Source: an uncultured virus (IMG/VR IMGVR_UViG_3300006793_000020) (Duplodnaviria; Heunggongvirae; Uroviricota; Caudoviricetes). From it: a stretch of 20,000 bases of DNA. The translations under genes were made by a program, and so were the position numbers. This document shows, piece by piece, positions 3,471 through 20,000 of this stretch; position 1 is the stretch's first letter; every line of letters starts with the position of its first letter. A model generated the notes under the pieces. That model was not told the DNA's origin, made no database searches, and saw only the letters and a list, made by a program, of their open reading frames with translations. Where the stretch lies: the IMG/VR virus record IMGVR_UViG_3300006793_000020. One strand, written 5' to 3'.

Positions 3471-3490
3471 TTATGTAGGTACTTAATTAT

Positions 3491-4432: not shown

Positions 4433-5576
4433 ACTAGATTTTGAATCGGAATTAGAATATTCTATTGATAGAGTGCGTGAAGTAACTGATCGTATTGTAG
4501 TAGTGCTTGTTGGGCAACCACGTGGTACTACATTAAAGACTTGGAAACGTTATTTAAGTGATGTAATGAAATCCACCATTTATCCATACCCTGAAGATGA
4601 TCACTGTAACGATCCTAATGCAAAACTAACTGGGGAAAATTGGGCAAAGGGTTGTCCTGTTAAACACAAACCTATAATTGATATAGTGTGTGTTGTTAGC
4701 GAATACGACACACCTGATCGTTATATGCAAGGCGAAGATCCACGTTTAGCTGGATTAGATGTGGATCCCTACTATGATCCACTGGCTATTATTAATAAAC
4801 ACAGTGCCAATGATTATGTAATGGATCTTTACAATTCCAAAAAGTTTCCAATTAATAAAGACAAATGGGAAAAATATCAGCGAGAAGTATGGGATTGGGC
4901 AGACAGCGTTAACTTTGTATACTGGACTGATGACAAAATATTAAATCGCATGGAAGAAAAGTTTGATTATCGTCCTTGGCATACCCGATGGATCAATCAA
5001 TTTTTACATTTTAGTTCAGCAGTACAAGAATTACCAGAAATATTTGACAATCTTACTAAAAATAGTGTAGTAATAAGACAGCGTTATGATACAGCATTAG
5101 CATCAGACTATAGTCTTTGGCATTATGCCAAAGAGTTGTTTAGTGTGTGGTGGACACCACATGGTGATGCTGACCAACACTACACACATCACGCAGGTTT
5201 TGATTTATCACCCATAGTTAGTTTACATGATATGCATATCTTACGTGGACATTTAAATGCAGGAGATGTTTTAAATACTTTTGATGGACCAGGTGCACAA
5301 ATATTTGGTGCTGGGTTAGAAGACTGGCTGTTAGAACAAGATAATCGAGTATACGGCGGAACTATAGATCCTATTGATAAGTGGAGTATACCTGAAATGG
5401 TAGTACCCAAGTTTTGTGTGGATAATGGATATACATTTAATATGGGATCAAAATTGCCGCCAATGTTACTGAGCTTAAACGATCCACCAATTGCTGACCA
5501 ATGGCGTTACCATTGGTATGATGATTGGACACCAGAATTAGTCGAGGAAATGAGAATACAATGCAACTTAGCCTAA
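4422..5576 (+). CDS. Hypothetical protein, possibly glycosyltransferase-like (GQPR...IRxRxD type)
   Basis: N-terminal VVLVGQPRG and central VIRQRYD. ATG 4422 is preferred over GTG 4416. Confidence 0.75.
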   Translation: MVSKLDFESELEYSIDRVREVTDRIVVVLVGQPRGTTLKTWKRYLSDVMKSTIYPYPEDDHCNDPNAKLTGENWAKGCPVKHKPIIDIVCVVSEYDTPDRYMQGEDPRLAGLDVDPYYDPLAIINKHSANDYVMDLYNSKKFPINKDKWEKYQREVWDWADSVNFVYWTDDKILNRMEEKFDYRPWHTRWINQFLHFSSAVQELPEIFDNLTKNSVVIRQRYDTALASDYSLWHYAKELFSVWWTPHGDADQHYTHHAGFDLSPIVSLHDMHILRGHLNAGDVLNTFDGPGAQIFGAGLEDWLLEQDNRVYGGTIDPIDKWSIPEMVVPKFCVDNGYTFNMGSKLPPMLLSLNDPPIADQWRYHWYDDWTPELVEEMRIQCNLA

Positions 5577-6175
5577 GTTATATATGTGCCAGTTGGCCCA
5601 AAATAAAAGAAACATATGAGTGTTTAGAACCACACTACAGTATGAGTCTACACATGGACTTTATGGATGGACAGTTTGTTCCACGCTTGGGATGCCACCC
5701 TGAAGCCATTGATGAAGCCAGAGAACACTTTGCTGGACACATAGACGTACACGCTATGATACAAAGTAACAGCAATGCTTGGGACGATATACTTGCCAGC
5801 AGTGCCAATGTAATCTATGCACACTATGAAAGTTTCCACAGTGACCAACAGTGTGTTGACTTTTTAAGCAGAGATGCTAGACTTAAACTGGCATTCAAAC
5901 CTTATCATACTATTCGACAAATGGACGATATATGCGACAGACTTGATGTAGACAACTTTTTATTAATGGCATATAATCCTGGTATTAAAGTACAGGATGC
6001 GTTCTTTGATCTAGACAGTCTATCACACACAGAGCGTTATGTAACAGTGGATGGCGGTGTAACACCAGCAACACTATCACGTTTTCAGTTACACCCTAAA
6101 ATACGATTGGTAGCAGGAAGTAAAATAATATTTAATGACAAATACAAGGAAAATATGCAGTGGCTAACCTCTTAA
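5561..6175 (+). CDS. rpe: Ribulose-phosphate 3-epimerase family protein (Rpe/AlsE-like)
   Basis: Metal ligands LHMDFMDGQFVP, DVHAM and VTVDGGV; C-terminal LVAGS. ATG 5561 gives a typical length. Confidence 0.88.
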   Translation: MQLSLSYICASWPKIKETYECLEPHYSMSLHMDFMDGQFVPRLGCHPEAIDEAREHFAGHIDVHAMIQSNSNAWDDILASSANVIYAHYESFHSDQQCVDFLSRDARLKLAFKPYHTIRQMDDICDRLDVDNFLLMAYNPGIKVQDAFFDLDSLSHTERYVTVDGGVTPATLSRFQLHPKIRLVAGSKIIFNDKYKENMQWLTS

Positions 6176-7563
6176 TACCATGCAGTGGACCCGGAACTAG
6201 AAGTGTAGGATACACTAAGTTTCACAAAGCACTTATACGTATAGGCAATATGGCAGTTATTGATCGTATTATACAAAGCTATACTGATATAGATACTATC
6301 TATATTACACTGGGTTATGAAGCTAACATTATTCGTGAGTATATTGAACATGCTGGATACACAAATATAGAGTTTATATACATCGACGACTGGATGAGTA
6401 ACCAGATTAGAAGTTTCCAACAGATCCCTGAACACGTATTTAAAGAGCCATTGTACTACAATGCATGTGATAACTGGACAACCAGTGTGCCTGAACCAGT
6501 GGGCAATACTTACTATACATGTAACCCAATAGATAGTCAACACTATGATACCAGTGGTGAAGAAGTTTACGCTGGCATTGCCTATATACAAGACAGTAAA
6601 CAGTTATATGATATACTACAACACAGTGAGTTAACTCGTAACGACTTATTGCTTTATCAAAAGTTTGACCAACTGGATAGTATTCCGCTTGACGACTGGT
6701 ATGATGTTGGCAATCGTAACAGTTACGAAACTTGTAGACAACAGTTTAATGATGACTTTGGTATACTGGATAAAACAAATCAGGAGTTTTATAAAGTAAA
6801 CCAACGTGTAGTTAAATTGTTTGAACACAAGCCGGATATAAACTTCAAGAATATGGCGTTTCCACATCCACAGCCTGTAACCCAAGGGGAACATGGCATA
6901 AGCTACGACTTTGTAGAGGGTCGTGTTAATCCAGACAACGGTGAGTTTACGCATCTGCTATCAACACTTGTGCGGTTATGGGAGTTTAGTTTACACAACA
7001 ATCAACAAACATACGATACTAAACTATGGCAAGACAAAACCTGGGAAAGATTTAATCTTATGATAGAGCAAAACCCAGAGTTTGCTGGTAGTATTATAAT
7101 TAACGGCAAAACAATAGACCCAGTACGTATTATGGAAAATTTACCTTGGCCAATGCTGTGCAGTGGTATACAAGGTCCAGCACATGGTGATTTGGTATTG
7201 GATAATATTGTTGTTGGTGATGATAAAATACATTATATTGATCACAGACCTGGCATAGTAGAGGATGTATATTATGATATGTGTAAGTTTTATCACAGTT
7301 TACATCTACATAATACAAATTTAAAGTCGGCTTGGCACTTGACAACACACCAAGATCAGTATATAATAGAATTAAAACTAACAAAGACAGACTATGAAAG
7401 AAGAGAACAATTTTATAACACTGGTTTGTATAAGTGGAACAAGCGCAAAATAGAACTAAGCGTAGGATGTATTTGGCTTAGTATGGCTCCGCTTAACGTA
7501 GATCAAGAGCTTAATAAATTCTTGTTCTTGTTAGCAATGGAAAAATTAAATGAACAACTTTGA
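6160..7563 (+). CDS. Fused sugar-phosphate nucleotidyltransferase and APH/choline-kinase-like phosphotransferase
   Basis: N-terminal IPCSGPGTR..HKALI, YNACD and WYDVGN. C-terminal HGDLVLDNI, YIDHR and DVYYDMCK. Confidence 0.88.
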   Translation: MANLLIPCSGPGTRSVGYTKFHKALIRIGNMAVIDRIIQSYTDIDTIYITLGYEANIIREYIEHAGYTNIEFIYIDDWMSNQIRSFQQIPEHVFKEPLYYNACDNWTTSVPEPVGNTYYTCNPIDSQHYDTSGEEVYAGIAYIQDSKQLYDILQHSELTRNDLLLYQKFDQLDSIPLDDWYDVGNRNSYETCRQQFNDDFGILDKTNQEFYKVNQRVVKLFEHKPDINFKNMAFPHPQPVTQGEHGISYDFVEGRVNPDNGEFTHLLSTLVRLWEFSLHNNQQTYDTKLWQDKTWERFNLMIEQNPEFAGSIIINGKTIDPVRIMENLPWPMLCSGIQGPAHGDLVLDNIVVGDDKIHYIDHRPGIVEDVYYDMCKFYHSLHLHNTNLKSAWHLTTHQDQYIIELKLTKTDYERREQFYNTGLYKWNKRKIELSVGCIWLSMAPLNVDQELNKFLFLLAMEKLNEQL

Positions 7564-8038
7564 CAAAGTTTGGAGTGATTATACTACACTCTATAATAAA
7601 CAAAAACAAGACACTATTCTAGTTGAACTGCAACGTGCCCGCAATATTGTATTTGTGGCAAAGGGAAGAGTGGGTTTAGCATGTAAGATGTTTATGCAAC
7701 GATTAAGCCAACAAGGGCTACGTGCATACCACAGTGAAGACCTACAAGTACCACGTTTAGATAGCAGAGATTTAGTTGTCTTTGTTACTGCTAGTGGAAA
7801 TACCGCCAGCAGTTTTTCTTACATAGACATCGCCAGTAAAACTGGTGCACGTACTATGAGCATTACTTTTAATCCCCAAGGACGTATTAGTAGTGCAACA
7901 GATGTTTGTATCGATTACAAAGAAAGCGATCTTCCGTTATTGATGAAAAGTTATCATGAATTGGGGTTTATCTATATATTTGAACGATTAATTAGTGACT
8001 TTCCACCGGAGGTATTTGTTCATACGAATTTTGAGTAA
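7550..8038 (+). CDS. SIS-domain sugar isomerase, 6-phospho-3-hexuloisomerase (HxlB)-like
   Basis: KGRVGLACKMFMQRL, VTASGNT, and C-terminal HTNFE (HANLE in HxlB). Confidence 0.8.
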   Translation: MNNFDKVWSDYTTLYNKQKQDTILVELQRARNIVFVAKGRVGLACKMFMQRLSQQGLRAYHSEDLQVPRLDSRDLVVFVTASGNTASSFSYIDIASKTGARTMSITFNPQGRISSATDVCIDYKESDLPLLMKSYHELGFIYIFERLISDFPPEVFVHTNFE

Positions 8039-8345
8039 ACCAAGATTCACTGTTAAAACTTTTATCACAAATATACATATCAAAATGCGGCTTGTTGCCA
8101 ACATGAAGTTCATGATACTTACAGCCCCATTCACTAAGTTGCTCACGTGTTAAATCAGTCCAGTCAATACCACGTGTTGCGCCACGGGCAGTCCAGTAAT
8201 GTATTTGGTGACCTTCAGCATACAGTTTATTGATAGCTGATATACGATCAGGATAAGGTTTTTGCGCAAGATAATGTTCGGCAGTTTTGCCACGGAATGG
8301 AATCTCCTCACAGATTGTTCCGTCAATGTCAACATAAATTATCAT
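7992..8345 (-). CDS. Small capless HAD-superfamily phosphatase (capsule-biosynthesis BcbF/EcbF-like)
   Basis: YVDIDGTIC (motif I), WTARG (motif II), KPHFDMYICDKS (motifs III/IV). Confidence 0.88.
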   Translation of the reverse strand: MIIYVDIDGTICEEIPFRGKTAEHYLAQKPYPDRISAINKLYAEGHQIHYWTARGATRGIDWTDLTREQLSEWGCKYHELHVGNKPHFDMYICDKSFNSESWFTQNSYEQIPPVESH

Positions 8346-8350
8346 ATAAG

Positions 8351-8358
8351 TATTTATA
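8351..8358 (-). promoter_or_regulatory. T4-type late promoter TATAAATA, 5 nt upstream of the HAD gene ATG
   Basis: Exact TATAAATA on the minus strand. An overlapping plus-strand variant TATAAGTA (8345-8352) may drive the carbamoyltransferase. Confidence 0.75.
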
Positions 8359-8382
8359 GTAGTAGTTAATTAAGGAAACAGA

Positions 8383-9894
8383 ATGATTACATGGGGTTGG
8401 AGCGGTATGTCACACGATGCTAGTTTAGCAGTGTTTAGTGCTGACGGATTAGAATTCGCCGCACACAGTGAACGCTATAGTCGTATTAAAAACGACAAAA
8501 ACTTACATCCTGATTTAATTGCAGAGGCACTTGAATTTGGCAAGCCTGATAAAATTTATTATTATGAGCGGCCACTATTAAAGAAAACACGACAAGCATG
8601 GGCTGGACAATGGCCATTATTAAAAAAGATATCGCCCACTGCTTATATGCGTAATCAATTATATGATCAAACAGCACCAGTTAGTGAACCAGTAAGTCAT
8701 CATTTAAGTCATGCAGCCGCAGGCTACTATACTAACCCTGGCGAAAAAGACAGTGCAGTACTAGTAATAGACAGTATTGGTGAATGGAATACTATTAGTA
8801 TCTGGAATGGCACTGGTGGTAAACTACGCAAACTGTGGAGCCAGAACTATCCACACAGTGTTGGTATCTGGTATAGTGCTATGACACAGCGACTAGGACT
8901 AAAGCCACAAGAACACGAATACATCCTCATGGGCATGGCTGCAATAGGCGATCCAGAACGGTATTATGAACTTGTAAAGATGGACTTTATTAAAAAGTTT
9001 CCAGACTTGCGTGATCCACGTACATTGTTTAAACGAGACTGTCACAGAGGATGCCGAGATTGGCGTCCCGAATTAAATAGTGTACAAGACTATGCTGACA
9101 TTGCCGCAGCCACCCAACGTATATATGAAGAAATATTTGAACGTTATTGTATGATAACGGCAGAAAAAACAAAAAGCCGCCGTATTACAATCATGGGAGG
9201 TTGTGCATTAAATTGCGTTGCAAACAGTTTGGCATATAAATATTTTGATAGCGTATGGATTATGCCTAATCCAGGCGATGCTGGTAGTAGTATTGGATGC
9301 GTACTAGCTAAAAAGAAACAATTTATGGAGTTTAAACATGCCTACACAGGACACGACATCCCAGGAGACTACCCAGTCGAAACTATTGTCAGAGAACTTA
9401 AAAACAAAAAAATCACAGCCGTTGCCTGTGGTAGAGCAGAATTTGGACCTAGGTCTCTCGGAAACAGAAGCATTCTTGCTGATCCTAGGGGAGTAGATGT
9501 CAAGGACAGAGTAAACCAAATTAAACAGCGTGAAGCGTTTAGGCCGTTTGCTCCCATGATATTAAAAGAGCACTTGGCTGATTACTTTGAGTTACCCAAA
9601 AACTTTACTGAGTCACCATTTATGCAGTACACACTTAAATGTCGTCAACCACATTTATTTCCTGCTATTGTACATTACGATGATACATCAAGAGTACAAA
9701 CAGTGGATGAGTCAAATGGCTGGATTTATACCTTACTAAAGCGTTGGGAAATGGAAACAGGATGTCCTATGCTGTTAAATACTAGTCTAAACATCAAAGG
9801 CGAGCCACTAGTTAATACCGAACAGGATGCACTACGTTGGACAGAACAATACGGAGTAAAGGTATGTTTACCAGAATCAGACAATGGTTACTAA
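8383..9894 (+). CDS. Carbamoyltransferase, NodU/CmcH/TobZ family
   Basis: SHDAS, ERYSRIKND, HHLSHAA, VIDSIGE, GGCALN, PGDAG, EFGPRSLGNRSILADPR, KQREAFRPFAP, RVQTV, LNTSLN..GEP; AAGGA SD. Confidence 0.97.
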   Translation: MITWGWSGMSHDASLAVFSADGLEFAAHSERYSRIKNDKNLHPDLIAEALEFGKPDKIYYYERPLLKKTRQAWAGQWPLLKKISPTAYMRNQLYDQTAPVSEPVSHHLSHAAAGYYTNPGEKDSAVLVIDSIGEWNTISIWNGTGGKLRKLWSQNYPHSVGIWYSAMTQRLGLKPQEHEYILMGMAAIGDPERYYELVKMDFIKKFPDLRDPRTLFKRDCHRGCRDWRPELNSVQDYADIAAATQRIYEEIFERYCMITAEKTKSRRITIMGGCALNCVANSLAYKYFDSVWIMPNPGDAGSSIGCVLAKKKQFMEFKHAYTGHDIPGDYPVETIVRELKNKKITAVACGRAEFGPRSLGNRSILADPRGVDVKDRVNQIKQREAFRPFAPMILKEHLADYFELPKNFTESPFMQYTLKCRQPHLFPAIVHYDDTSRVQTVDESNGWIYTLLKRWEMETGCPMLLNTSLNIKGEPLVNTEQDALRWTEQYGVKVCLPESDNGY

Positions 9895-9992
9895 GTCCTT
9901 GGACTAAACGAGCCCAAAGAAAACAAAAAGAACAGGAACGTGCAGAGAGGTTGGAAAAACTTCGTAAGCGTGATCCATTCATATATGATTAA
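9864..9992 (+). CDS. Unannotated 42-aa basic protein MFTRIRQWLLSPWTKRAQRKQKEQERAERLEKLRKRDPFIYD
   Basis: GGAG SD at 9853-9856, ATG 9864, TAA 9990-9992. Overlaps the carbamoyltransferase end and fills the gap exactly up to the next promoter. Confidence 0.75.
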   Translation: MFTRIRQWLLSPWTKRAQRKQKEQERAERLEKLRKRDPFIYD

Positions 9993-9995
9993 CGA

Positions 9996-10024
9996 TTGAC
10001 AAATTCGATATAATCGTATATTAT
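9996..10024 (+). promoter_or_regulatory. Sigma70-type promoter TTGACA-17 bp-TATTAT
   Basis: Perfect -35 at 9996-10001 and 5/6 -10 at 10019-10024, followed by AGGAG SD before TTG 10053. Confidence 0.7.
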
Positions 10025-10052
10025 TGTACAGAACACCACAGGAGAATACCGA

Positions 10053-10775
10053 TTGCTAGACGTAATACAAATCAGCTATCATGAAGAGCAGGCTGAAGAA
10101 AACTTTGAAATATTAAAATACTATGCACCACATGCTAAAAGAGTAGAAGGCGTTAAAGGTATATTCAATGCACATCAGGCTGCAGCAGAGATAGCAGAAA
10201 CAAGTCACTTTTATGTAATTGATGCTGATGCTATTATTGAAGAAGAGTTTAGTTTTAACTTTAAACCACAAGCAAACAAACTAGAGTACGAACACATTCC
10301 ACAAACAGAGTGTGTTTATGTGTGGCGTAGTCGTAACCCTATTAATGATTTAGTATATGGATATGGTGGAGCAAAAATGTTTCCACGCAAAGCTCTACTA
10401 AAAGCAAAGGATTGGCGAGTTGATATGACAACATCAATTGGTTGTCCGTTTGTGCCAAAGTTTCAAGTTAGTAACATTACAGCGTTTAATACTAATCCGT
10501 TTGATACCTGGAAGAGTGCATTTAGAGAATGTACTAAACTAGCCAGCAGTATTATTAAAAATGGAGATAATATAGACAACGAGTATAGACTAGATGTGTG
10601 GAAAACACGTGGAAAAAATCGACCATTTGGTGAATATTGTACAATGGGCGCAAAACAAGGTGCAGACTTTGGTGCTTATTACAGAGGCAATATCAATGCA
10701 CTCAATCGTATTAACGACTTTGCTTGGTTACAACAGACATTTACAGAAGCAGTAGAGGCACTGGAAAATGCTTGA
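10053..10775 (+). CDS. Putative GT-A fold glycosyltransferase
   Basis: FYVIDADAII (DxD), GIFNAHQAAA, YGYGGAKMF, WKSAFRE; TTG start with a strong SD. Confidence 0.7.
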   Translation: MLDVIQISYHEEQAEENFEILKYYAPHAKRVEGVKGIFNAHQAAAEIAETSHFYVIDADAIIEEEFSFNFKPQANKLEYEHIPQTECVYVWRSRNPINDLVYGYGGAKMFPRKALLKAKDWRVDMTTSIGCPFVPKFQVSNITAFNTNPFDTWKSAFRECTKLASSIIKNGDNIDNEYRLDVWKTRGKNRPFGEYCTMGAKQGADFGAYYRGNINALNRINDFAWLQQTFTEAVEALENA

Positions 10776-11865
10776 GCTTCATGAATTACTGGATAGATTT
10801 GAAATACTGTATCCTGATAACCAAAAGCTGAGTGACCTACGGCGAGCTGTTGTTGATCAAGACCTAAGCAGTATATTCCGGTTAGTGGATGATAATGACA
10901 GTGACTTGCGCAGTGCAGTACTGGACGATAACATACACAGTATATTTAGATTGGCAGAAGAGTGGCAAGTAACTGGTCACAGTGACGATCTCAGACGAGC
11001 AATGCTTGAGCAAAACATATACAGTCTGTTTAGATTATTTCCAGAACAAGACGAAACAGTGCACTTGTATCGTACAGCCATAGTTAATAAAAATATTCGT
11101 AGTATTACTCGTTTACTGGGCGATGAAGATTTGGGTAAACTAATACTGGATCACAATGAACACAAAGTGTTCCCGCAAATTGAAAAATATGTGGACTCTC
11201 CGTTTATTCCTGCATTAAAAAGTTTACGTAATAATAAAGTAGAGTGGAACACTGATTGTTTAAGTCAGGGTCAGTTGCGCAGTAAACGCTGGATAGTTGA
11301 TGAACTACAAAAACTAGACTTAGATTTGGGTGTGGTATTCCTGTGTGCAGGTTGGTATGCTACACTTGCTACAATGTTGTTTGAGAGTGATATAAAACTA
11401 GAACGCATACATAGTTTTGATACTGATCCATCAGCAGGACCCATAGCAGAAATATTTAATAAAACACAATATTTAAACAAGTGGGAGTTTAAAAGCAGTA
11501 CAGTAGACATCCACAAAATGAATTATACCACTGAGCCAGCCCCTAGTGACGGCAGTGTTGGTAACTTTTACTTTGAAACTGAGAACTTCTCTTCGGGTAA
11601 ACATATTGAAACTCGTCTAAAACCAAATACATTTATTAATACCAGCACAGAGCACATTCTTGATTTTAATGATTGGTATACCGGTATACCATTTGGAAGT
11701 TTAATCATCATGCAAGGCAACAACTACCATGATCTTGACGAGCACGTTAATACACACAACAGTTTAGCTGACTTTAGTTGGATGATACACATGCGTAAGC
11801 CATTGTTTGAAGGTGAATTGGATCTGGGCAATTACACAAGGTATATGAAAATTGGATTTAAATGA
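10768..11865 (+). CDS. Class I SAM-dependent methyltransferase-like protein with N-terminal helical repeats
   Basis: C-terminal half has SQGQLRSKRW, FLCAGWYATL (motif I-like), SFDTDP (motif II) and INTSTEH. N-terminal repeats present. Confidence 0.7.
   Translation: MLELHELLDRFEILYPDNQKLSDLRRAVVDQDLSSIFRLVDDNDSDLRSAVLDDNIHSIFRLAEEWQVTGHSDDLRRAMLEQNIYSLFRLFPEQDETVHLYRTAIVNKNIRSITRLLGDEDLGKLILDHNEHKVFPQIEKYVDSPFIPALKSLRNNKVEWNTDCLSQGQLRSKRWIVDELQKLDLDLGVVFLCAGWYATLATMLFESDIKLERIHSFDTDPSAGPIAEIFNKTQYLNKWEFKSSTVDIHKMNYTTEPAPSDGSVGNFYFETENFSSGKHIETRLKPNTFINTSTEHILDFNDWYTGIPFGSLIIMQGNNYHDLDEHVNTHNSLADFSWMIHMRKPLFEGELDLGNYTRYMKIGFK
10831..11181 (+). repeat. 4-5 degenerate intragenic repeats with an 18-aa core (DLRRAVxxxNIxSIFRL)
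   Basis: DLRRAVVDQDLSSIFRLV / DLRSAVLDDNIHSIFRLA / DLRRAMLEQNIYSLFRLF / LYRTAIVNKNIRSITRLL / DLGKLILDHNEHKVFPQI. Confidence 0.8.
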
Positions 11866-12079
11866 TTTAACTGTTAGACAATTACAAGTAGAAGCCGCTA
11901 GAGCATTAAGCACTATGGAAGCTACTAATAATAATATCTATCAATTTAATAAATTAGCACATCATAATAGTCATGCTTGGTATCAGGCAGTTATTGCCTG
12001 GTATATGTCAGAATATGGTGGCTTGCCTAGTAAAACTGGACCAGGACAAAACGTAAAGTTAATTATTGACAATGTATAA
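11852..12079 (+). CDS. Small hypothetical protein (75 aa)
   Basis: Overlaps both neighbours and fills the gap between the methyltransferase and the radical SAM gene. Confidence 0.75.
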   Translation: MDLNDLTVRQLQVEAARALSTMEATNNNIYQFNKLAHHNSHAWYQAVIAWYMSEYGGLPSKTGPGQNVKLIIDNV

Positions 12080-13154
12080 CTATCAAGATATAAAACAAGT
12101 ACATCTGGAAGTCACACAACGCTGTCAGGCGGCATGTCCTATGTGTGACCGTAATGAAAATGGTGGTGCTGACAACAGACATATTACTAATGCTGAACTT
12201 AGTTTAGCTGACTGTAAACGTATCTTTAAGCCAGAGTTTATCCAACAACTAGACAGTATGTACATGTGTGGTAATTTGGGCGATCCTATCATTGCAAAAG
12301 ATACACTAAAAATATTTCGTTACTTTAGACAACATAACCCCAATATGTGGTTGAGTATGAATACAAACGCTGGTGCAAAAGACACACAATGGTGGACACA
12401 GTTAGCAGAAGTATTTGGCAGAATGGGTACAGTTATCTTTAGTGTAGACGGTCTTAGTGATACTAATCATTTGTATAGACAGAATGTGGTCTGGGATAAA
12501 GTAGAAACCAATATGCGGGCCTTTATTGCGGCAGGTGGCCGTGCTCGTTGGGACTTTATTGTATTTGGACACAACGAACATCAAGTTGAACAAGCAGAAG
12601 CTCTAGCACATGAATGGGGATGTGAACGCTTTCAAAAGAAGAAAAGCGGTAGATTTTTTACAGCAAGTAATAAGGGTAAAGATGATCATCAAGCACAAAA
12701 CCGCAAAGGTGTAGAAACACAATTAATACGCAAGCCAGTTAAACTGGATAATCAAAACCTAGCATTATTAAAACAAAAAGAGATAGAAAAATCCTACGGA
12801 AGCATGAATGAATATTATAACAAGTGTAGCATACGTTGTAAAGCCGTAGAGAAAAAAGAAATCTTTATTACAGCAGAAGGATTATTAATGCCTTGCTGTT
12901 GGACTGCTGGGCGTATGTACAAGTGGTGGCACAAAGATTACCGTGTGGAACAAATATGGGATCATATTGAAATGGCTGGCGGTAAAATGGGTATTGACGT
13001 TCGTCGACATGGATTAGAAAGCGTATTTAATAGCGGTATACTCAATACTATACAAAACAGTTGGGATAAGTCCAACATTGCTGAAGGTAAGTTGGGTGTT
13101 TGTGCTATGAAGTGTGGTACAGAGTTTGATCCGTTTGGTGCACAGTTCGTTTAA
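12072..13154 (+). CDS. Radical SAM protein with C-terminal SPASM/Twitch-like domain
   Basis: CQAACPMC, CGNLGDP, FSVDG; C-terminal C..MPCCW..CAMKC. ATG 12072 preferred. Confidence 0.93.
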   Translation: MYNYQDIKQVHLEVTQRCQAACPMCDRNENGGADNRHITNAELSLADCKRIFKPEFIQQLDSMYMCGNLGDPIIAKDTLKIFRYFRQHNPNMWLSMNTNAGAKDTQWWTQLAEVFGRMGTVIFSVDGLSDTNHLYRQNVVWDKVETNMRAFIAAGGRARWDFIVFGHNEHQVEQAEALAHEWGCERFQKKKSGRFFTASNKGKDDHQAQNRKGVETQLIRKPVKLDNQNLALLKQKEIEKSYGSMNEYYNKCSIRCKAVEKKEIFITAEGLLMPCCWTAGRMYKWWHKDYRVEQIWDHIEMAGGKMGIDVRRHGLESVFNSGILNTIQNSWDKSNIAEGKLGVCAMKCGTEFDPFGAQFV

Positions 13155-14521
13155 GGTCGGTAATCAACTGATATTTCTTTACCCAGTTCATATAAACCAC
13201 GCAAGTGTGGTACACTAGTACACAAGTCTGTGCCACGGGCAACATCCATTTGTTTAAGACCATTATACCAGTAATATAAGTTTCTATAGTTTGGAGCCGC
13301 ATACCGCCAGTCTTCTTTAACAAGCCAATTCTGCCAACGATCAAGATTTTCTGTCCAACTTCGTGGATGAACTCCGCTTGTTTGCGCCTTACGTAAACTT
13401 TGTAAACATTGCTCACGTAACTCTGGTATATAGTAAGACATCTTTGGCTGTGTTGTATCGTTAGTCCATATAGTTAACTTGCCGTCTGGATTATTCATTG
13501 GCGGGTCATTAATTGTATTTAGAGGGCAATTATCCATAAACCATTCACCCAATTCATGTATATTAGGTGCATTAAAAATATTCCAACATGTTTGTATATT
13601 TAAATTGACACCGCTTTCATTAATTCTACGATATGTATTAAGCCATTTTTTATCTTTATATCCATAACGAGCATACTCTCCAGTACTACCAAACCCATCA
13701 TTACTCATTGTAATAGTTGCGTTGTCTCCCCAGTGTACAAGATAATCATCAATGATGTCAACCCCTTTGTACTTGGTAATAGTACCGTTAGTGTGACTCC
13801 ACACGTGAACACGTTCTTGTAACCCACGTTTTAGTAATTCTTCTAGTAGCTCATATGTTTCTTCAGCCATAAATGGCTCACCGCCGTTTAGGTGTATAGC
13901 ATGGATACTATCTATATTTCTTAGCACATAGTCTACTTTGTGCTTGGATCCATTAACCCAATTATCCATATCATTATGATAGTCGTCAGGGTCTTGTGCA
14001 TTTAGTATGGCATATTCACGTTTGTATTTGTCATTAATTGTACTACTGAGTTCTGGTGTACACCCCAAACATGCCATATTACATTTACTGGTCCACAAAA
14101 AATCCAACCACTGTGGTTTATGTTTGTGTAGTGTGCCGTCTGGATCTGTGTTGTTAACTAAATCCATGATAACAGGCACTGTACTCATGCCACTACCATG
14201 TAAGCGATTTAAACTAGTTTCACCATTCTCTTCTTGTTGCCAGCAAGCCTCACACTGTGGATGTCGTTCATTACGTAAAAATGCTGCTCTAACATCTTTA
14301 GCATGGTCACTGTTATACATTTCTTCAAACGTTTGCTTGCCACTCCAGCCAATTGGCTCTCGAGTTTTACAACAAGTACTTACTAATCCTTCTGGACCTT
14401 CGTGAAAACTATTCCACGGACTTGTACAAAAATTACTAAGCCCTGTTTTCTCAACAATTGCTTTGTGTATTTCTTCTTTATTGCCGTATTCTTCTCTTGC
14501 ATGTGAAGGTATTTTTGCCAT
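13151..14521 (-). CDS. Radical SAM protein with N-terminal Twitch/SPASM-like domain
   Basis: FCTSPW..STCCK..CEACW, then CNMACLGC, GGEPF, HTNGT, SNDG. Confidence 0.93.
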   Translation of the reverse strand: MAKIPSHAREEYGNKEEIHKAIVEKTGLSNFCTSPWNSFHEGPEGLVSTCCKTREPIGWSGKQTFEEMYNSDHAKDVRAAFLRNERHPQCEACWQQEENGETSLNRLHGSGMSTVPVIMDLVNNTDPDGTLHKHKPQWLDFLWTSKCNMACLGCTPELSSTINDKYKREYAILNAQDPDDYHNDMDNWVNGSKHKVDYVLRNIDSIHAIHLNGGEPFMAEETYELLEELLKRGLQERVHVWSHTNGTITKYKGVDIIDDYLVHWGDNATITMSNDGFGSTGEYARYGYKDKKWLNTYRRINESGVNLNIQTCWNIFNAPNIHELGEWFMDNCPLNTINDPPMNNPDGKLTIWTNDTTQPKMSYYIPELREQCLQSLRKAQTSGVHPRSWTENLDRWQNWLVKEDWRYAAPNYRNLYYWYNGLKQMDVARGTDLCTSVPHLRGLYELGKEISVDYRP

Positions 14522-14526
14522 ACAAC

Positions 14527-14546
14527 TATTTATTGATTCATAAATA
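14527..14546. promoter_or_regulatory. Divergent pair of late-promoter boxes: AATAAATA (minus, 14527-14534) and CATAAATA (plus, 14539-14546)
   Basis: Each box lies exactly 5 nt upstream of its ATG (14521 and 14552), with no SD between box and ATG. Confidence 0.75.
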
Positions 14547-14551
14547 TAAGT

Positions 14552-15628
14552 ATGTACTTAATAGATACCATTAAACGTGTAGAACTGGAGATATCAAGTG
14601 ACTGTAATGCTGCTTGTCCTGGATGCGCCCGTACACAAAACTTAGATATACTACAGCCCCGTAACTTAACTATAGAACAAATACAAAATTGGTTCCCTGA
14701 TAGACGACATATTGAAAATAAAACATTTAAACTGTGTGGAGTATTGGGTGATCCCATTGTTAATCCAGACTGTATGGCAATAACCAAATGGTTACTGGAA
14801 CACGGCGGCAACGTAGCATACAGTACCAATGGCGGACGTAACAGTGCTGAATGGTGGCGTGAACTAGGAGAGCTAAGTGGTCGATATAAACACGATCAAT
14901 TAAAAGTTCATTTTTGTGTTGACGGTGTAGAAACAAATCATGTATATCGTGTTAATACAAACTATAAAATTATTGATAGAAATATGCAAGCCTACAGTGA
15001 TGGCGGACGCAGTACAGGTAGTAAAGCACAAGCAAGTTGGGTTTATATTGTATTTGATCACAACGAACATGAATTGGAAACAGCCAGAGCTAGAGCAGAA
15101 GAACTAGACTTCCGCTTTGCAACACGCACTGGTATGCGTAATACCTTTCACGACTGGGTGGCTAAAATAGGTAAAAAGAACAATCAAATTGAAAAAACTA
15201 TTACTACAACAGGTGCTAAAGAACACAGTAAAGTGGCGGTTGTAAAAGAGTTAGATCGTTTTATCCAAAGTGAGGACAAGAGCCCGGAACAAATTACAGA
15301 AATAGTATCCAGTATTAGTTGTAAGTTTTATCATGACAGAGAAATATTTGTAAGTGCCAACAGTTCATTGTGGCCCTGTTGTTTCCTGTGGGATAGTGCT
15401 TTTAAAAACAAAGATGGAATCATGGACAAATACAGTTCATTTGAGTCAGGCTGGAATGATTTAAATCAACACAGTATAGAAACTATACTAAACACTGACT
15501 ACTATCAGACTACACTTAGTGATAGTTTTGATCCAAGACATAATAAACATGTTAGTCGTTGTATACGTACTTGCGCTAAGAATCGTGCATATCATAATGA
15601 AATAACATACAAGGACGAAAATGATTAA
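14552..15628 (+). CDS. Radical SAM protein with C-terminal SPASM/Twitch-like domain; paralog of 12072..13154
   Basis: CNAACPGC, CGVLGDP, FCVDG, IVFDHNEH, WPCCF..CIRTC. Confidence 0.93.
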   Translation: MYLIDTIKRVELEISSDCNAACPGCARTQNLDILQPRNLTIEQIQNWFPDRRHIENKTFKLCGVLGDPIVNPDCMAITKWLLEHGGNVAYSTNGGRNSAEWWRELGELSGRYKHDQLKVHFCVDGVETNHVYRVNTNYKIIDRNMQAYSDGGRSTGSKAQASWVYIVFDHNEHELETARARAEELDFRFATRTGMRNTFHDWVAKIGKKNNQIEKTITTTGAKEHSKVAVVKELDRFIQSEDKSPEQITEIVSSISCKFYHDREIFVSANSSLWPCCFLWDSAFKNKDGIMDKYSSFESGWNDLNQHSIETILNTDYYQTTLSDSFDPRHNKHVSRCIRTCAKNRAYHNEITYKDEND

Positions 15629-16280
15629 AATATTAACGTTGGGGTGTAGTTTTACACAAGGACACACAATACCTTACGATAATAGCTGGAGTTGGATACT
15701 TAGCAAACGTCATTCACATCTTCAATTCTTGGATTTAAGTAAAGGCGGAAGTAGTATACAGTGGGCCAACTATATGTACGATTGTGCAAAAAAACTCAAT
15801 TGTTTTGATTATTGTATTGCACAGTTTACCAGTCCACTTAGACTGACATTACATCCAGAACGTTGGAGTGATATTGAGAGTTGTCTAATTCCTAGGAGCA
15901 GTAATTATACATTTTGGAACAGTGATGAATTAGAACAGTTGTGTGATTTTAGTAGCAGTGGTTGGTTAGGTACTCCACGATTTGGATGGCCAGGTAATAG
16001 TAAACCCAAGGTACCGTTTGTAAGACAATATTTTGAAACTATACCCAAGCAATTTCATTTAATTAATTATGAAAGTGTAGTACACAATCTAAACAGTAAA
16101 GTAGACTTTGGATTTAAATGGCGTAGCGAAGACCCAGTTGACTTTGTTGCTATAGAAAATGTAATACACCGCTTTGATCAATTACAAATTGACGATTTTG
16201 GACATCTTGGAGTTGAAGGAAGTGAATTGGTTGCAGATTGGATCGAACAAGAATTTTTAATACCCAACAAATTAATATGA
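15621..16280 (+). CDS. SGNH/GDSL-like protein
   Basis: LTLGCSFTQG, DLSKGGSS, C-terminal DDFGHLG (DxxH). Confidence 0.68.
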   Translation: MIKILTLGCSFTQGHTIPYDNSWSWILSKRHSHLQFLDLSKGGSSIQWANYMYDCAKKLNCFDYCIAQFTSPLRLTLHPERWSDIESCLIPRSSNYTFWNSDELEQLCDFSSSGWLGTPRFGWPGNSKPKVPFVRQYFETIPKQFHLINYESVVHNLNSKVDFGFKWRSEDPVDFVAIENVIHRFDQLQIDDFGHLGVEGSELVADWIEQEFLIPNKLI

Positions 16281-16290
16281 TAGGTATATT

Positions 16291-17574
16291 TTATTGATCC
16301 GGCGCTGGAATATTTAAAATAAAGTCAGCCACTTGTGGTTGTAACATCTCATCATAGTTTTGTTTACGTACAATGTCAAGTGTTAGTGTGTCTTGTTTTA
16401 GCCTAGCTCTACGTTCTGTTAGTAGATCAGGATCATGTGTTTGAGATAAGCACCATTCCAAATACTTTATAGTTTTTTGTACACCACCTTGTACATATTC
16501 ATCACACTCCACAGCACACATAGTTTGATATGCTATATCCAATAGTTCTGTACTTGCCCACTTAACATCTAAACAACTGTTGTGTGGATGTGGATCAGGA
16601 ATACACTTCCATGTAATCTTGTGTTCACTATACCAATTATGCTGTATAATCCAATCAATGAGGTTACGTATGTTTAGCATGTTGTATGTGGTTAACACAC
16701 TGCATATGTGTATTTCAGTACTGAGTGGATCTTGTGTCTCACAAAGTTTGTTTATATTATCTTCTAGCTTACGCCAGTTGAATGGATATCGCATGTATTC
16801 ATATGTACTGCGTGTGCCGTCTACACTGAGAGTAAAATGTCTTTTACTGAACATCTTCATGCTGTCTAAAAATAAATGATTAAATTTAGTAGCATTGGTT
16901 GTTAAATGTATTTTTACGTTCTCTGGATAGTTTAAGTTATTAATGATACTCCAGAATGTTTTACTAACAGTTGGCTCTCCACCAGTAAACTTTAGCTCAC
17001 GTATTTCGTCTCCCAGTTCAAGCAACTCTTGTTGATACGCTTTATTAGGTCCAAAAAATACTTGTGATCCGTTCGGATCAGCTTGACTTTCAGTCTGTTT
17101 TATGTTATAGTATTCAGGTAATGGTAAGTCAAGTTCTAGTATCTGATTATAGTCTTTACGTAGACTGTTGCTAACACTGGGTGCACACATTCTACACTGT
17201 AGATTGCAGCTTTCGTCTATCATGGTGTCTAATTTTTGTAGACGTTGTGTAGCTGGTGCGGTACTTTGCTTTAGTGGTGTAATAGCAGTAATACGTGGGC
17301 TATGCCCAGTTTGTCTCTCCAGACGCCAACAGTACTCACAAGCTGGGTTGCGAATACCACTCAGCAAGTCTAAACGTAGTTGGTTAAACTGTGGGCTGGC
17401 AAATATATCACTTAAACTAGCACCACTGTCTATCAAGGGTTTTACTCCCATTGGATCGTCAGTATTATCCGACTTCATGTTACAACAAGGCGTCACACGA
17501 TGTGGCCGACCATCAACCCAGCTTTTAGGGGCAATGCTTTCAAAAGGAAAGCTACAATAAGTAGGATGTTCCAT
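16291..17574 (-). CDS. Radical SAM protein with N-terminal Twitch/SPASM-like domain
   Basis: YCSFPF..TPCCN..CEYCW, then CNLQCRMC, GGEPT, TTNAT, SVDG..YMRYP. Confidence 0.93.
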   Translation of the reverse strand: MEHPTYCSFPFESIAPKSWVDGRPHRVTPCCNMKSDNTDDPMGVKPLIDSGASLSDIFASPQFNQLRLDLLSGIRNPACEYCWRLERQTGHSPRITAITPLKQSTAPATQRLQKLDTMIDESCNLQCRMCAPSVSNSLRKDYNQILELDLPLPEYYNIKQTESQADPNGSQVFFGPNKAYQQELLELGDEIRELKFTGGEPTVSKTFWSIINNLNYPENVKIHLTTNATKFNHLFLDSMKMFSKRHFTLSVDGTRSTYEYMRYPFNWRKLEDNINKLCETQDPLSTEIHICSVLTTYNMLNIRNLIDWIIQHNWYSEHKITWKCIPDPHPHNSCLDVKWASTELLDIAYQTMCAVECDEYVQGGVQKTIKYLEWCLSQTHDPDLLTERRARLKQDTLTLDIVRKQNYDEMLQPQVADFILNIPAPDQ

Positions 17575-17579
17575 ACTAG

Positions 17580-17611
17580 TATTTATCTGTAAAATACGTA
17601 GTTAATAAATA
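17580..17611. promoter_or_regulatory. Divergent pair of late-promoter boxes: GATAAATA (minus, 17580-17587) and AATAAATA (plus, 17604-17611)
   Basis: Each box lies exactly 5 nt upstream of its ATG (17574 and 17617), with no SD between box and ATG. Confidence 0.75.
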
Positions 17612-17616
17612 ACAAT

Positions 17617-19068
17617 ATGAAAAACTTATTAAAGTATATCAGTAAAACCTTTAAACGTACACCAGCCAGGCCAGACGAACCTCATAAAAACTTTTGTGTA
17701 ATACCATTTATACACCTAGCCACCACTACTGAAGGTAATTGTAGATTGTGTTGCAAAGTAAGTAAGTTTGACACTATCAATAAACCTGATGGTACACCAT
17801 ATAATGTTAATGTAGACAGCATTGACGAGATATGGCACAGTGATCATTATAATGAAATACGTGATCGTGTACTGGCAGATGAGAAATTACCTGAGTGTAA
17901 AACATGCTGGCGAGAAGAAGAAATTCACTATAGTGACTGGAGCAAGTATAAAAACAACGAATTATCCAGTAAACGCCGTAAAGAAAACCAAAAATGGTTA
18001 CATCGTGAGAAAACACGACTAACTGACAACTGGCAAACAGTTGTTGATGATCCACAAATTCGTTACTTTGATGTTAGACTCAGTAACTTGTGTAATTTAA
18101 AATGTCGCATGTGTTGGCCACACTTTAGTAGTCAAATTGTTAAAGAACAAAAAGAATTTGCCAAAGCTGGATTACCCACACATTATAAAAACTATGATGT
18201 GAATGAATGGGATACAGAACTGTTGTGGGAAGGCATCAAACACAATTTAATAGCTGTTGAGGAAATATCATTTGTGGGTGGTGAACCTACATTACACGAA
18301 GGAATTGACCAGTTACTGGACCAACTAGTAGAGACTGGACAGTGTAAAAAGATAAGACTAAAGTATACAACCAACTTAACAAATATACAGCCAAAGACAC
18401 TGGAATATATGAAGCATTTTAAAAATACAGTTATTAATGGTAGTATAGACGGAGTTGGTAGCACAAATGATTACATACGTTTCCCCAGTGATTGGCAAAC
18501 TATAGAAAAAAATATTTTTAAACTAATAAATCTTCGCCGTATCAAATACAAGCACTGGCGTGAAACCAGTTTAACACTGACACCTGTTATACAAATCTAC
18601 AATGTGTTTAACATAAAAGACTTGGTTTGGTGGTACTGTCAAACATGGCTAAGTATATATAGTAAAAGTAAGAAATACTTTGTTCTTGATTTAGATTTAT
18701 TATATGATCCAGGCTATCTTAGTGTTAAACGGCTAAATGTACAAGGTAAGAAAGCATGGCATGCTGATGTGTTTAAACCTACAATGGATTATTTAGATGA
18801 TATTATTAATAATATTGATCGTTATGATGCAGACAGTAGAAATTATTGGTATGTCCTTATAGAATTACGAAAGCGTATTATTAATATTGCAGTGTATATG
18901 GAAGTAGTAAACTATGATACACAAACAGATGAATGGGATTATTGGTTTAGTGATACAACAGATCCTAAACTACAGAAACAATTAGTAGACTATACCAAAC
19001 AACTAGACAAACACCGTGGACAAGATGTTACTGATATCATACCAGGGTTTTATGAGTATATCAAATGA
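17617..19068 (+). CDS. Radical SAM protein with N-terminal Twitch/SPASM-like domain
   Basis: FCVIPF..RLCCK..CKTCW, then CNLKCRMC, GGEPT, TTNLT, SIDG..YIRFP. Confidence 0.93.
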   Translation: MKNLLKYISKTFKRTPARPDEPHKNFCVIPFIHLATTTEGNCRLCCKVSKFDTINKPDGTPYNVNVDSIDEIWHSDHYNEIRDRVLADEKLPECKTCWREEEIHYSDWSKYKNNELSSKRRKENQKWLHREKTRLTDNWQTVVDDPQIRYFDVRLSNLCNLKCRMCWPHFSSQIVKEQKEFAKAGLPTHYKNYDVNEWDTELLWEGIKHNLIAVEEISFVGGEPTLHEGIDQLLDQLVETGQCKKIRLKYTTNLTNIQPKTLEYMKHFKNTVINGSIDGVGSTNDYIRFPSDWQTIEKNIFKLINLRRIKYKHWRETSLTLTPVIQIYNVFNIKDLVWWYCQTWLSIYSKSKKYFVLDLDLLYDPGYLSVKRLNVQGKKAWHADVFKPTMDYLDDIINNIDRYDADSRNYWYVLIELRKRIINIAVYMEVVNYDTQTDEWDYWFSDTTDPKLQKQLVDYTKQLDKHRGQDVTDIIPGFYEYIK

Positions 19069-20000
19069 CAAAAGCACCAAGTGAAACATTTTGTATCCTG
19101 CCCTGGGTACATTTATCAACCAGACCAGATGGCAGTATGCGAGTATGTTGTACAGCCAATGCCAGTAGTGTTGGTCCGACAAATGACAAAAGTGAATGGG
19201 GAGGCATGGTGGGCGTACTCAAGGACGATCTAGGCCGTCCCAACAACTTAAATGTAACAGACTTTCAGAGCGCATGGAATTCAAAGTATATGCGTAATGT
19301 TCGCAAACAAATGCTTAATGGCGAAATTCCAGCTAGTTGTACCAAGTGCTTTAAAGAAGAAGCCGCAGGACACCGCAGTAAACGACAATGGGAAACTGCT
19401 TACTGGAGTCAGCGTGTTGATGTTGATAACCTTATCTCCAATACACAAGACGATGGCGAAGTACCTCCCAACTTGGCATACATTGACTTACGCTTTGGTA
19501 CCAAGTGTCAATTAGCCTGTGTTATGTGTAGCCCACATGATAGCAGTGGTTGGATTAAAGATTACAAAAAGATCTTTCCAGCAGTACAAAACACTACACT
19601 AAAAGACACCATGCAGTGGAGCGACAAAGGTAGCATAAACGGAAGTAGTTACAACTGGCACAAACAAAACGACATATTCTGGCAACAGTTTTATGAACAA
19701 ATGCCTAGTATGCAACAGATTTATTTTGCTGGTGGTGAGAGTTTAATTATTGAGGAACATTATGAGATACTTGAACATGCGATTAAAATGGGTTACGCAA
19801 AAGATCTGGAACTACGTTACAACTCAAACGGAGTTGAATGGCGAGAAGATTTATTTGATCTATGGAGAGAATTCAAACTGGTGCGTTTCCATTATTCGGT
19901 AGACAGCATACACGCTATGAATGATTATATACGTTATCCCAGTGAATGGAAGCGACAAGAGGAAGTGTTCCACATACTTGATACACAAACAAGCAACAAT
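19065..20000 (+). CDS. Radical SAM protein with N-terminal Twitch/SPASM-like domain, 3'-truncated by the window (absent from the ORF track)
   Basis: ATGA overlap at 19065-19068. Manual translation MTKAPSETFCILPWVHL..RVCCT..CTKCF..DLRFGTKCQLACVMC..FAGGES..NSNG..SVDS..YIRYP is open to the end of the window. Confidence 0.92.
   Translation, partial: MTKAPSETFCILPWVHLSTRPDGSMRVCCTANASSVGPTNDKSEWGGMVGVLKDDLGRPNNLNVTDFQSAWNSKYMRNVRKQMLNGEIPASCTKCFKEEAAGHRSKRQWETAYWSQRVDVDNLISNTQDDGEVPPNLAYIDLRFGTKCQLACVMCSPHDSSGWIKDYKKIFPAVQNTTLKDTMQWSDKGSINGSSYNWHKQNDIFWQQFYEQMPSMQQIYFAGGESLIIEEHYEILEHAIKMGYAKDLELRYNSNGVEWREDLFDLWREFKLVRFHYSVDSIHAMNDYIRYPSEWKRQEEVFHILDTQTSNN

Follow-up and report, generated by a model that had tools for sequence, protein, structure and literature searches.

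Permuted twitch-type radical SAM enzymes in cassette arrays of T4-like jumbo phages: a candidate glycan-tailoring island

Why would a virus carry a row of radical SAM genes, and on what might their products act? Radical SAM enzymes catalyse some of the hardest reactions in biology, and six of their genes fill the last 8 kb of a 20,000-nucleotide stretch of DNA from the IMG/VR virus record IMGVR_UViG_3300006793_000020, an uncultured member of the Caudoviricetes; we refer to this whole stretch as the window. We find that these genes encode twitch-type radical SAM enzymes, most of them with a permuted domain order, and that such enzymes have been expanded into cassette arrays in jumbo phages. Our favoured explanation, held with moderate confidence, is that the array belongs to a cassette-like radical glycan-tailoring island in the host-recognition region of the phage genome, the substrate and the chemistry being the parts that we infer. 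In the sections of the two earlier papers that touch on them, such arrays are mentioned in passing (PMC5332604; PMC7029224), and the protein family is catalogued but unstudied.

An initial annotation of this DNA had placed six radical SAM proteins between positions 12072 and 20000, each with a CxxxCxxC motif and a second Cys-rich domain, and this holds for all six open reading frames:

12066–13154, plus strand: radical SAM A, 362 amino acids, CQAACPMC (CxxxCxxC at residues 20–27), C-terminal twitch-like Cys domain, core member
13151–14521, minus strand: radical SAM B, 456 amino acids, CNMACLGC, N_Twi_rSAM type, SPASM match at residues 32–94
14552–15628, plus strand: radical SAM C, 358 amino acids, CNAACPGC, A-type paralogue with 29% identity to A, C-terminal Cys domain
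16291–17574, minus strand: radical SAM D, 427 amino acids, CNLQCRMC, N_Twi_rSAM type
17617–19068, plus strand: radical SAM E, 483 amino acids, CNLKCRMC, N_Twi_rSAM type
19065–20000, plus strand: radical SAM F, CQLACVMC, N_Twi_rSAM type, cut by the window end (311 amino acids), the most conserved member

All six match the Pfam Radical_SAM profile (PF04055), with E-values from 5e-13 to 7e-5; A (36.1 bits), D (36.5), E (50.0) and F (31.8) exceed the gathering cut-off of 29.5 bits, and B (23.6) and C (28.5) fall under it while being significant by E-value. What distinguishes four of them is the position of the second domain. In B, D, E and F, a Cys-rich domain with the pattern C-x18-CC-x~48-CxxC comes before the catalytic core, and in an 18-sequence alignment the residues C27, C45, C46, C94 and C97 (E numbering) precede C159, C163 and C166, all of them invariant, and a GGEP motif is seen as well. 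The four proteins have this domain order in common with NF033640 (N_Twi_rSAM), a catalogued name of unknown function, and belong to that family, matching over the whole model with 229.5 (B), 210.2 (D), 307.2 (E) and 313.4 bits (F) against a curated cut-off of 170. The Pfam SPASM matches are likewise N-terminal, at residues 27–98 in E and 10–95 in F as well as in B. A and C differ in that their Cys-rich domain follows the core: A reaches 45.8 bits with NF033640, below the cut-off, and C has no match to it; both match phrog_21308 (E 2.8e-20 for A and 4.9e-14 for C), and C gives 19.4 bits with Pfam SPASM at residues 257–337, just below the cut-off. In the alignment of the A family, C20, C24, C27, C277, C278, C346 and C350 are invariant and C258 is nearly so. 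Among the proteins of related viral loci, CxxxCxxC is present in all 434 of 434 that are at least 300 amino acids long, and GGE[PSA] in 263 of 265 of the N_Twi type. Motifs and family matches together identify the six as intact SPASM/twitch-type radical SAM proteins; that they are decayed duplicates is rejected, all motifs being intact. The open reading frame of A opens with TTG and has an ATG two codons in, at 12072, which is the likely start since its orthologues begin MYxYxDIK. The pairs B/C and D/E are divergently arranged, their start codons only 30 and 42 bases apart (14522–14551 and 17575–17616), and the inverted orientation of B and D is kept in four related loci (L003, L004, L005 and L007).

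How close do these proteins come to enzymes of known function? The initial annotation had named MoaA, NirJ and PqqE as families whose membership would speak against a tailoring role, and this membership we reject: the scores lie far under the curated equivalog cut-offs, at best 39.2 against 284 bits for MoaA (TIGR02666) and 18.7 against 515 for NirJ, with none listed for PqqE. A profile search of the PDB retrieved TigE (8vpo, E 3.9e-9) and SkfB (E 3e-8), followed by viperin, CteB, GDGT-MAS, BlsE and MoaA, all of them remote, and the AlphaFold2 model of E (pLDDT 81) resembled SkfB, anSME, CteB, BlsE, AprD4 and viperin in Foldseek with query-normalised TM-scores of at most ~0.32–0.33. The matches to SkfB, anSME, CteB and TigE lie mainly over the common core, and natural fused forms of A have in addition an N-terminal accessory domain, to which we return below. 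The sugar and nucleoside twitch enzymes BtrN, BlsE and AprD4 likewise have one domain for an auxiliary cluster besides the radical SAM core, but that domain stands at the opposite end of the protein from that of N_Twi; BlsE and AprD4 are among the structural matches of E, at TM-scores of at most 0.29 and 9–15% identity, and BtrN is not among the matches shown. The four-Cys spacing of N_Twi may resemble that of BtrN, whose single auxiliary cluster is fully Cys-ligated; N_Twi proteins conserve four or five Cys in this domain. A literature search covering radical SAM and twitch enzymes in phages, jumbo phages, T4-like phages and iron–sulfur (Fe–S) genes, Bdellovibrio and SPASM, tail-fibre glycosyltransferases, and myoviruses to 2014 found no functional study.

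Are the six, then, copies of one enzyme or different enzymes? The N_Twi genes of the window are mutually only 22–27% identical. In a FastTree tree of 400 N_Twi-type sequences (leaving out identical ones and those shorter than 330 amino acids or scoring under 150 bits), B, D, E and F are placed in different clades, and the F clade is single-copy, with 23 viral sequences from 23 loci. We compared the window with 81 viral loci, that is, 80 kept from at least 564 IMG/VR relatives plus L003, each picked by similarity to the query and extending ~10 kb to either side. Orthologues with at least 60% identity occur in 29 of these loci for F, 15 for A, 12 for a 75-amino-acid protein encoded upstream of A, five for C, three for D, two for B and one for E; with at least 50% identity, orthologues of A are found in 22 of the 81. 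Because of this spread of orthologues and the separate clades, we distinguish a stable core, consisting of a glycosyltransferase-like gene, a methyltransferase-like gene, the 75-amino-acid gene, A and F, from exchangeable additions (the genes of B, C, D and E and one for an SGNH-like protein). A multi-step tailoring role, as proposed at the outset, fits paralogues so deeply diverged (22–29% identity), each kept as an orthologue group of its own.

Whose genes are they? Positions 1–13153 of the window are the reverse complement, at 99.9% identity, of the first 13,153 bases of another IMG/VR record (G001), which ends there; G001 is 38 kb long with a CheckV completeness of 11%, and from these two figures we estimate a genome size of ~350 kb. 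The order of genes at window positions 7550–20000 recurs gene for gene in two viral loci, L003 and L004, and L004 is part of a larger record (G005; 198 kb, 55% complete). A T4-type Gp23 capsid gene is present in G005, in G002 (328 kb, terminal repeats, 100% complete) and in G003, and the closest large relatives are T4-like jumbo phages of ~330–360 kb. The window is best explained as a stretch of the hypervariable island in the ~350-kb genome of an uncultured T4-like jumbo phage. A giant eukaryotic virus as the source is rejected, judging by the Gp23 genes of the relatives and by the dense, overlapping genes; a search of the relatives for capsid proteins of nucleocytoplasmic large DNA viruses gave no match, which is uninformative as the controls were equally without a match. 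The virus-encoded nature of the system, claimed in the initial annotation, is borne out by the near-identical viral record and the syntenic relatives with Gp23, while its target, given there as 'glycan, protein or nucleotide', was too broad to be wrong, and the evidence leans towards glycan.

The placement of the island within the genome can be seen in G005, where genes for a baseplate wedge subunit, a 3745-amino-acid virion structural protein and a fibre-like protein lie ~5–20 kb upstream of it. This layout matches that of the 'host recognition cluster' of pelagimyophages, with its glycosyltransferases, lipopolysaccharide-type sugar genes and radical SAM cassettes; in these marine T4-like phages, pelagimyophages and cyanomyophages, the cluster is likewise hypervariable and lies among the structural genes (Zaragoza-Solas et al. 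2020, PMC7029224); in that paper's description of the cluster, the radical SAM genes are not analysed. The phages studied here are about twice the size of those pelagimyophages and have 17–22 radical SAM matches each, and among isolated pelagiphages there is one weak match only, in Mosig EXVC030M, with 22.8% identity to A. A blastn search of GenBank phages with the 8-kb array gave no match. Sequence signals are uninformative on the timing of expression: the T4 late-promoter motif TATAAATA occurs three times against 3.27 expected, and sigma-70-like and terminator-like sites are not enriched.

How far does the array extend? The figure of six given by the initial annotation is too low: the run comprises at least 14 radical SAM genes in this phage, of which the window shows a part. 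G001 continues it upstream of position 1 with six more NF033640 genes over the cut-off, one weaker radical SAM gene and one gene for a 737-amino-acid B12-binding class B radical SAM protein (L002:4985–7198, minus strand, where L002 is G001 18462–38461), eight genes that add to the six of the window. The relatives are similarly rich: Radical_SAM matches number 22 in G002, 17 in G003, 18 in G004 and 20 in G005, and NF033640 matches at E ≤ 1e-5 number 20, 15, 18 and 21, with 14 of the 20 in G002 over the cut-off. An A-type Fe–S carrier is encoded in two of these four relatives and IscU in one. Twelve radical SAM genes, together with Fe–S assembly genes, have been described in the environmental genome of a marine T4-like virus (Nishimura et al. 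2017, PMC5332604), and this combination is echoed by the carrier and IscU found here; in the part of that paper that deals with them, the radical SAM genes are counted in passing and are not assigned to a family, placed in a context or given a function. Within the arrays of three loci (L004:17609–18163, L015:16398–16946 and L081:11438–12013) there is a PNP_UDP_1 gene of the methylthioadenosine/S-adenosylhomocysteine (MTA/SAH) nucleosidase type. This class of nucleosidase could remove 5'-deoxyadenosine, and by analogy the gene may clear this product from the arrays' reactions.

With what do the radical SAM genes travel? Multi-copy arrays are usual in the 81 viral loci, commonly with two to eight copies per ~20 kb, and the family is large, E alone having 1289 relatives at E ≤ 1e-3 among 5236 candidates, nearly all of them unnamed metagenome proteins. 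Homologues of the window genes (blastp, E ≤ 1e-5) are found in 41 of the 81 loci for A-type and 40 for C-type radical SAM proteins, and three further genes, directly upstream of A in the window, recur with them:

10053–10775, plus strand: GT-A-fold protein (predicted structure), first gene of the conserved core operon, with an invariant DxD; homologues in 38 of 81 loci
10768–11865, plus strand: possibly methyltransferase-like partner, a lead, fused to the GT-A-like protein in L005 and L006; homologues in 32 of 81 loci
11852–12079, plus strand: 75-amino-acid protein, overlapping the start of A and directly upstream of A-type radical SAM genes; homologues in 17 of 81 loci

The order glycosyltransferase-like gene, methyltransferase-like gene (adjacent or fused) and A- or C-type radical SAM gene is seen in 21 of the 81 loci, 13 of which also have the 75-amino-acid gene. 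The first of these proteins has no Pfam, NCBIfam or PHROG match and no meaningful match in the PDB profile search; its AlphaFold2 model has a pLDDT of 88.6, and the top Foldseek matches are all glycosyltransferases of the GT-A fold, the model (VIA) reaching Z 11.7 to B4GALNT1, with a root-mean-square deviation of 2.5 over 136 residues, and Z 10.7 to ThuS. D57 and D59 ('DADA') are invariant in 26 homologues, and the ESM Atlas gives a weak lead to GT2 (0.86). The glycosyltransferase-like gene described in the initial annotation is thus a GT-A-fold gene, just upstream of the array as stated. The gene called methyltransferase-like there is present as well, and its identity stays a lead: it has no Pfam, NCBIfam or PHROG match and no PDB profile match, the ESM Atlas links it (0.93) to a cluster in which 21% of the members carry Methyltransf_31, and one of 24 homologues matches Methyltransf_25 (E 0.0066). 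The two proteins are joined naturally in L005:2–1801 and L006:2–1801, 599-amino-acid fusions in which residues 44–262 match 10053–10775 and residues 311–599 match 10768–11865.

The third partner shows 53–75% identity across 13 homologues, with conservation spread evenly along its length, and is fused N-terminally to an A-type radical SAM protein in nine of the 13 longer proteins found; in one of them (P0121), residues 1–73 match the 75-amino-acid protein at 73% identity and residues 76–435 match A at 71%. The natural fusions and the adjacency indicate that it works with A, and there is good evidence in these sequences that it would be an accessory partner or domain of that enzyme. A predicted complex of the two scored 0.37, 0.00 and 0.00 in its runs, for which controls were not run, and counts neither way. 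Recognition domains on the maturases of ribosomally synthesised and post-translationally modified peptides (RiPPs) sit upstream of the enzyme or are fused to it N-terminally, and a small protein so placed next to a SPASM/twitch enzyme mirrors them. This raises an alternative that we consider unlikely, though it deserves attention: the array would modify a peptide or protein, either a RiPP-like product or residues of the virion or tail fibres, with the 75-amino-acid protein as the substrate-recognition domain for A and oxygenases and nitroreductase-like enzymes adding further modifications. It gains from the nearest solved relatives by profile and fold being TigE, SkfB, anSME and CteB, from Asp/Asn beta-hydroxylase-like oxygenases near the arrays in 46 of the 81 loci and nitroreductase-like genes in 17, from the peptide S-glycosyltransferases SunS and ThuS among the GT-A matches, and from the island lying beside fibre genes in G005. 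However, the 75-amino-acid family gives no PqqD or RiPP recognition element (RRE) signal, having no Pfam match even at E ≤ 10 apart from chance-level rows, and the even conservation along its length argues that it is not a leader–core precursor. No conserved precursor-like small open reading frame was identified, although no systematic search was made, no RiPP-type protease or transporter genes are among the frequent neighbours, and the context in the phage consists mostly of sugar enzymes.

That context is the other half of the window, together with one gene that interrupts the array:

377–1441, plus strand: DegT/DnrJ/EryC1-type sugar aminotransferase (Pfam PF01041, E 4.3e-63)
1432–2322, minus strand: SDR epimerase/dehydratase of nucleoside diphosphate (NDP) sugars (Pfam PF01370, E 2.1e-36)
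3085–3456, minus strand: small cupin (Pfam Cupin_2, E 4e-8), possibly a sugar 3,5-epimerase or isomerase
5525–6175, plus strand: ribulose-phosphate 3-epimerase-like (Rpe-like) sugar-phosphate epimerase (PF00834, E 2.4e-19; far under the NCBIfam equivalog cut-offs)
7550–8038, plus strand: SIS-domain sugar-phosphate isomerase (Pfam SIS, E 2e-10; HxlB-like at 66.9 bits against a cut-off of 160)
7992–8345, minus strand: small HAD-type phosphatase (phrog_1238, E 7.9e-26; Pfam match faint only)
8383–9894, plus strand: NodU/Nol-type carbamoyltransferase (Carbam_trans_C, E 1.2e-51; Carbam_trans_N, E 2.1e-35; phrog_1601, E 3.7e-94)
15621–16280, plus strand: SGNH-like hydrolase/esterase candidate, motif-based, interrupting the radical SAM array

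The position of the last of these is as the initial annotation gave it, and its SGNH identity is a matter of motif: G8, S10, D191 and H195 are invariant in 17 homologues, and the profile weakly matches the GDSL protein 4rw0 (E 2e-4) over its first 66 positions. The window copy has GCS instead of GDS, and the Asp–His spacing is longer than in the canonical DxxH; all 17 family members lack a Pfam match and the window protein lacks NCBIfam and PHROG matches, so that the label SGNH-like is reasonable but unproven. Two further observations concern the left half. The 467-amino-acid product of 6160–7563 matches phrog_21938, of unknown function, and has a faint N-terminal match to sugar-1-phosphate nucleotidylyltransferases (NCBIfam, E 0.0042); activation of the sugar in the pathway may be its role. 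The first open reading frame (3–380, open-ended; 340 amino acids in G001) and the 386-amino-acid one at 4416–5576 are paralogues of no known family.

Related to this, the radical SAM family is found next to glycosyltransferases outside phages as well. In the species genomes of GTDB, 358 relatives were found, from which 69 loci were kept (L084–L152); 52 of the 69 are from Bdellovibrionota by record title, including contigs of megabase size, and the copies are often multiple. In two contigs of metagenome-assembled genomes of this phylum (L092 and L094), a tRNA-synt_2-like gene, an unknown gene, two GT2 genes and two N_Twi genes follow one another, with housekeeping genes flanking, and GT2 families recur in 10 and seven of the 69 bacterial loci. 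Viral and bacterial sequences are intermixed in the tree, with 42 changes on 400 leaves. Some of the 'bacterial' contigs (L088 and L084) look like binned phage DNA, since they contain the module of the 75-amino-acid gene, A and N_Twi. GenBank phages have weak relatives only, those of E in 18 Vibrio phages (~253 kb) and one marine virus, at 26–28% identity, and those of F in K566, K567 and Ralstonia phage RsoM2USA. In the cultured Vibrio phage K566 (255 kb; L153), three annotated radical SAM genes form a mini-array at 161548–165950; they are distant relatives, with 24–28% identity.

We favour glycan tailoring because of the sugar-enzyme surroundings, the conserved GT-A partner, the GT2 operons of Bdellovibrionota and the placement near fibre genes; the sugar-acting twitch enzymes BlsE and AprD4 among the structural matches, and the nucleosidase-type gene within some arrays, fit it too. 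Gene content, intact motifs, folds, synteny, fusions and phyletic spread are matters of observation; a glycan substrate, the individual reactions and a target on virion fibres or the host surface are what these would suggest. Several points weigh against this explanation. No member comes near a characterised enzyme, and the best relatives by profile and fold (TigE, SkfB, anSME and CteB) act on peptides or proteins. The GT-A fold is common to nucleotidyltransferases, IspD and MobA reaching Z ~10 with the product of 10053–10775, and the assignment of 10768–11865 as possibly a class I methyltransferase-like Rossmann protein is a weak label. The nucleotide-sugar genes of the window do not travel with the radical SAM family: homologues of the carbamoyltransferase are found in seven of the 81 viral loci, of the SDR protein in four, of the SIS and HAD proteins in three each, of the DegT protein in one, and of the cupin and the Rpe-like protein in none, with the SGNH-like gene in four. 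The initial annotation had named a lack of conserved co-occurrence with the sugar genes as grounds for refutation, and this applies in half: the nucleotide-sugar genes are in 0–7 of the 81 loci, but the GT-A-like and methyltransferase-like genes recur as given above. All such counts are biased and are lower bounds, as the loci were chosen by similarity and cover ~10 kb per side. Finally, the oxygenase-, nitroreductase- and QueC-like neighbours suit peptide chemistry as well.

What do the remaining neighbours suggest? Between the two arrays, just upstream of window position 1 in G001 (L001:13784–19766), there are genes for an NDP-sugar C-methyltransferase (Methyltransf_14/13), a Stf0-like sulfotransferase, an SDR protein and a UDP-glucose/GDP-mannose dehydrogenase, besides one or more other methyltransferase genes and GDSL-like and SnoaL-like genes. 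Across the 81 loci, the class B B12 radical SAM family is present in 37 and a small protein with a faint GT92 match in 24, and ThyX, fatty-acid desaturase and LpxO-family-type hydroxylase genes lie near the arrays in some. The class B enzymes and the SnoaL-like gene, with the carbamoyl-, amino-, methyl- and sulfotransferases, make up a mix like that of secondary metabolism, and it is conceivable, if improbable, that the island makes or remodels a non-glycan small molecule or lipid, be it a cofactor, a metabolite resembling an antibiotic or a lipid of the envelope that serves during infection; the desaturases and LpxO-family-type hydroxylases and the weak profile matches to the lipid synthase GDGT-MAS would go with this. 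On the other hand, a scaffold enzyme (cyclase, polyketide synthase or nonribosomal peptide synthetase) is lacking among the window genes and the frequent neighbours, the cofactor-family cut-offs are far from reached, and the glycosyltransferase-like partners and the bacterial GT2 operons point to glycans.

Past the position that corresponds to the window end, the array of L004 goes on with a QueC-like gene and five additional radical SAM genes, as well as PNP_UDP_1, nitroreductase-like and Asp/Asn hydroxylase-like genes. QueC-like genes, 14 in 10 loci (for example, L004:12749–13612), repeatedly follow N_Twi genes, and with ThyX nearby in some loci they bring to mind DNA modification. T4-like phages glycosylate their DNA, and the island could hypermodify phage DNA with complex glycosylated or decorated bases against host restriction, the GT-A-like protein transferring sugars to DNA and the radical SAM enzymes tailoring them; many diverged cassettes would suit such an arms race. 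We nevertheless judge this very improbable. In one QueC-like representative the similarity is confined to the 60 C-terminal residues of QueC (E 8.6e-6), a second one lacks a Pfam match, no DNA-binding, base-exchange or hydroxymethylase gene is among the frequent neighbours, the N_Twi family stands in Bdellovibrionota GT2 operons flanked by housekeeping genes, and the island of G005 is in the structural and fibre region and not in a replication module.

Under glycan tailoring, how would the island work? The phage would build and edit an unusual sugar decoration from it. The SIS, HAD, Rpe-like, aminotransferase, SDR, cupin and carbamoyltransferase proteins of the left half would make a modified nucleotide sugar, and the right half would supply a core operon of the GT-A-fold transferase, its possibly methyltransferase-like partner, the 75-amino-acid accessory protein and A, with F also a core member; the lineage-specific cassettes B, C, D and E and the SGNH-like esterase would be interleaved with this core. 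Each radical SAM enzyme would hold a [4Fe-4S] cluster through its CxxxCxxC motif and cleave S-adenosylmethionine to a 5'-deoxyadenosyl radical, to which a carbon of the sugar would then lose a hydrogen. The electron may be handled by a second cluster, that of the twitch domain, as in dehydrogenation of the BtrN type, epimerisation, deoxygenation or decarboxylation.

A bolder extension, which we regard as possible though doubtful, is that jumbo phages hold a library of radical SAM cassettes, each performing a distinct C–H functionalisation of sugars (epimerisation, deoxygenation, C-methylation or oxidation), and so decorate their tail fibres or virions with a hypervariable glycan that is theirs alone, in effect a phage O-antigen that sets the host range or shields the particle; the twitch-first proteins would then represent a functionally new class among the radical SAM enzymes of carbohydrates, common to phages and predatory Bdellovibrionota. 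Whatever the substrate, ~20 radical SAM enzymes in a phage of ~330 kb, each in an orthologue group of its own, point to extensive and so far unexplored chemistry in viruses that abound in the ocean, and several hundred sequences with the permuted twitch domain can be mined for enzymology. The pair of the 75-amino-acid protein and A and the fusions of the glycosyltransferase-like and methyltransferase-like proteins are concrete starting pairs for biochemistry, and the cultured Vibrio phages K566 and K567, with the three-gene mini-array, offer a tractable system. If the products are indeed glycans on virions or host surfaces, the island would bear on how marine phages recognise their hosts and exclude competitors.

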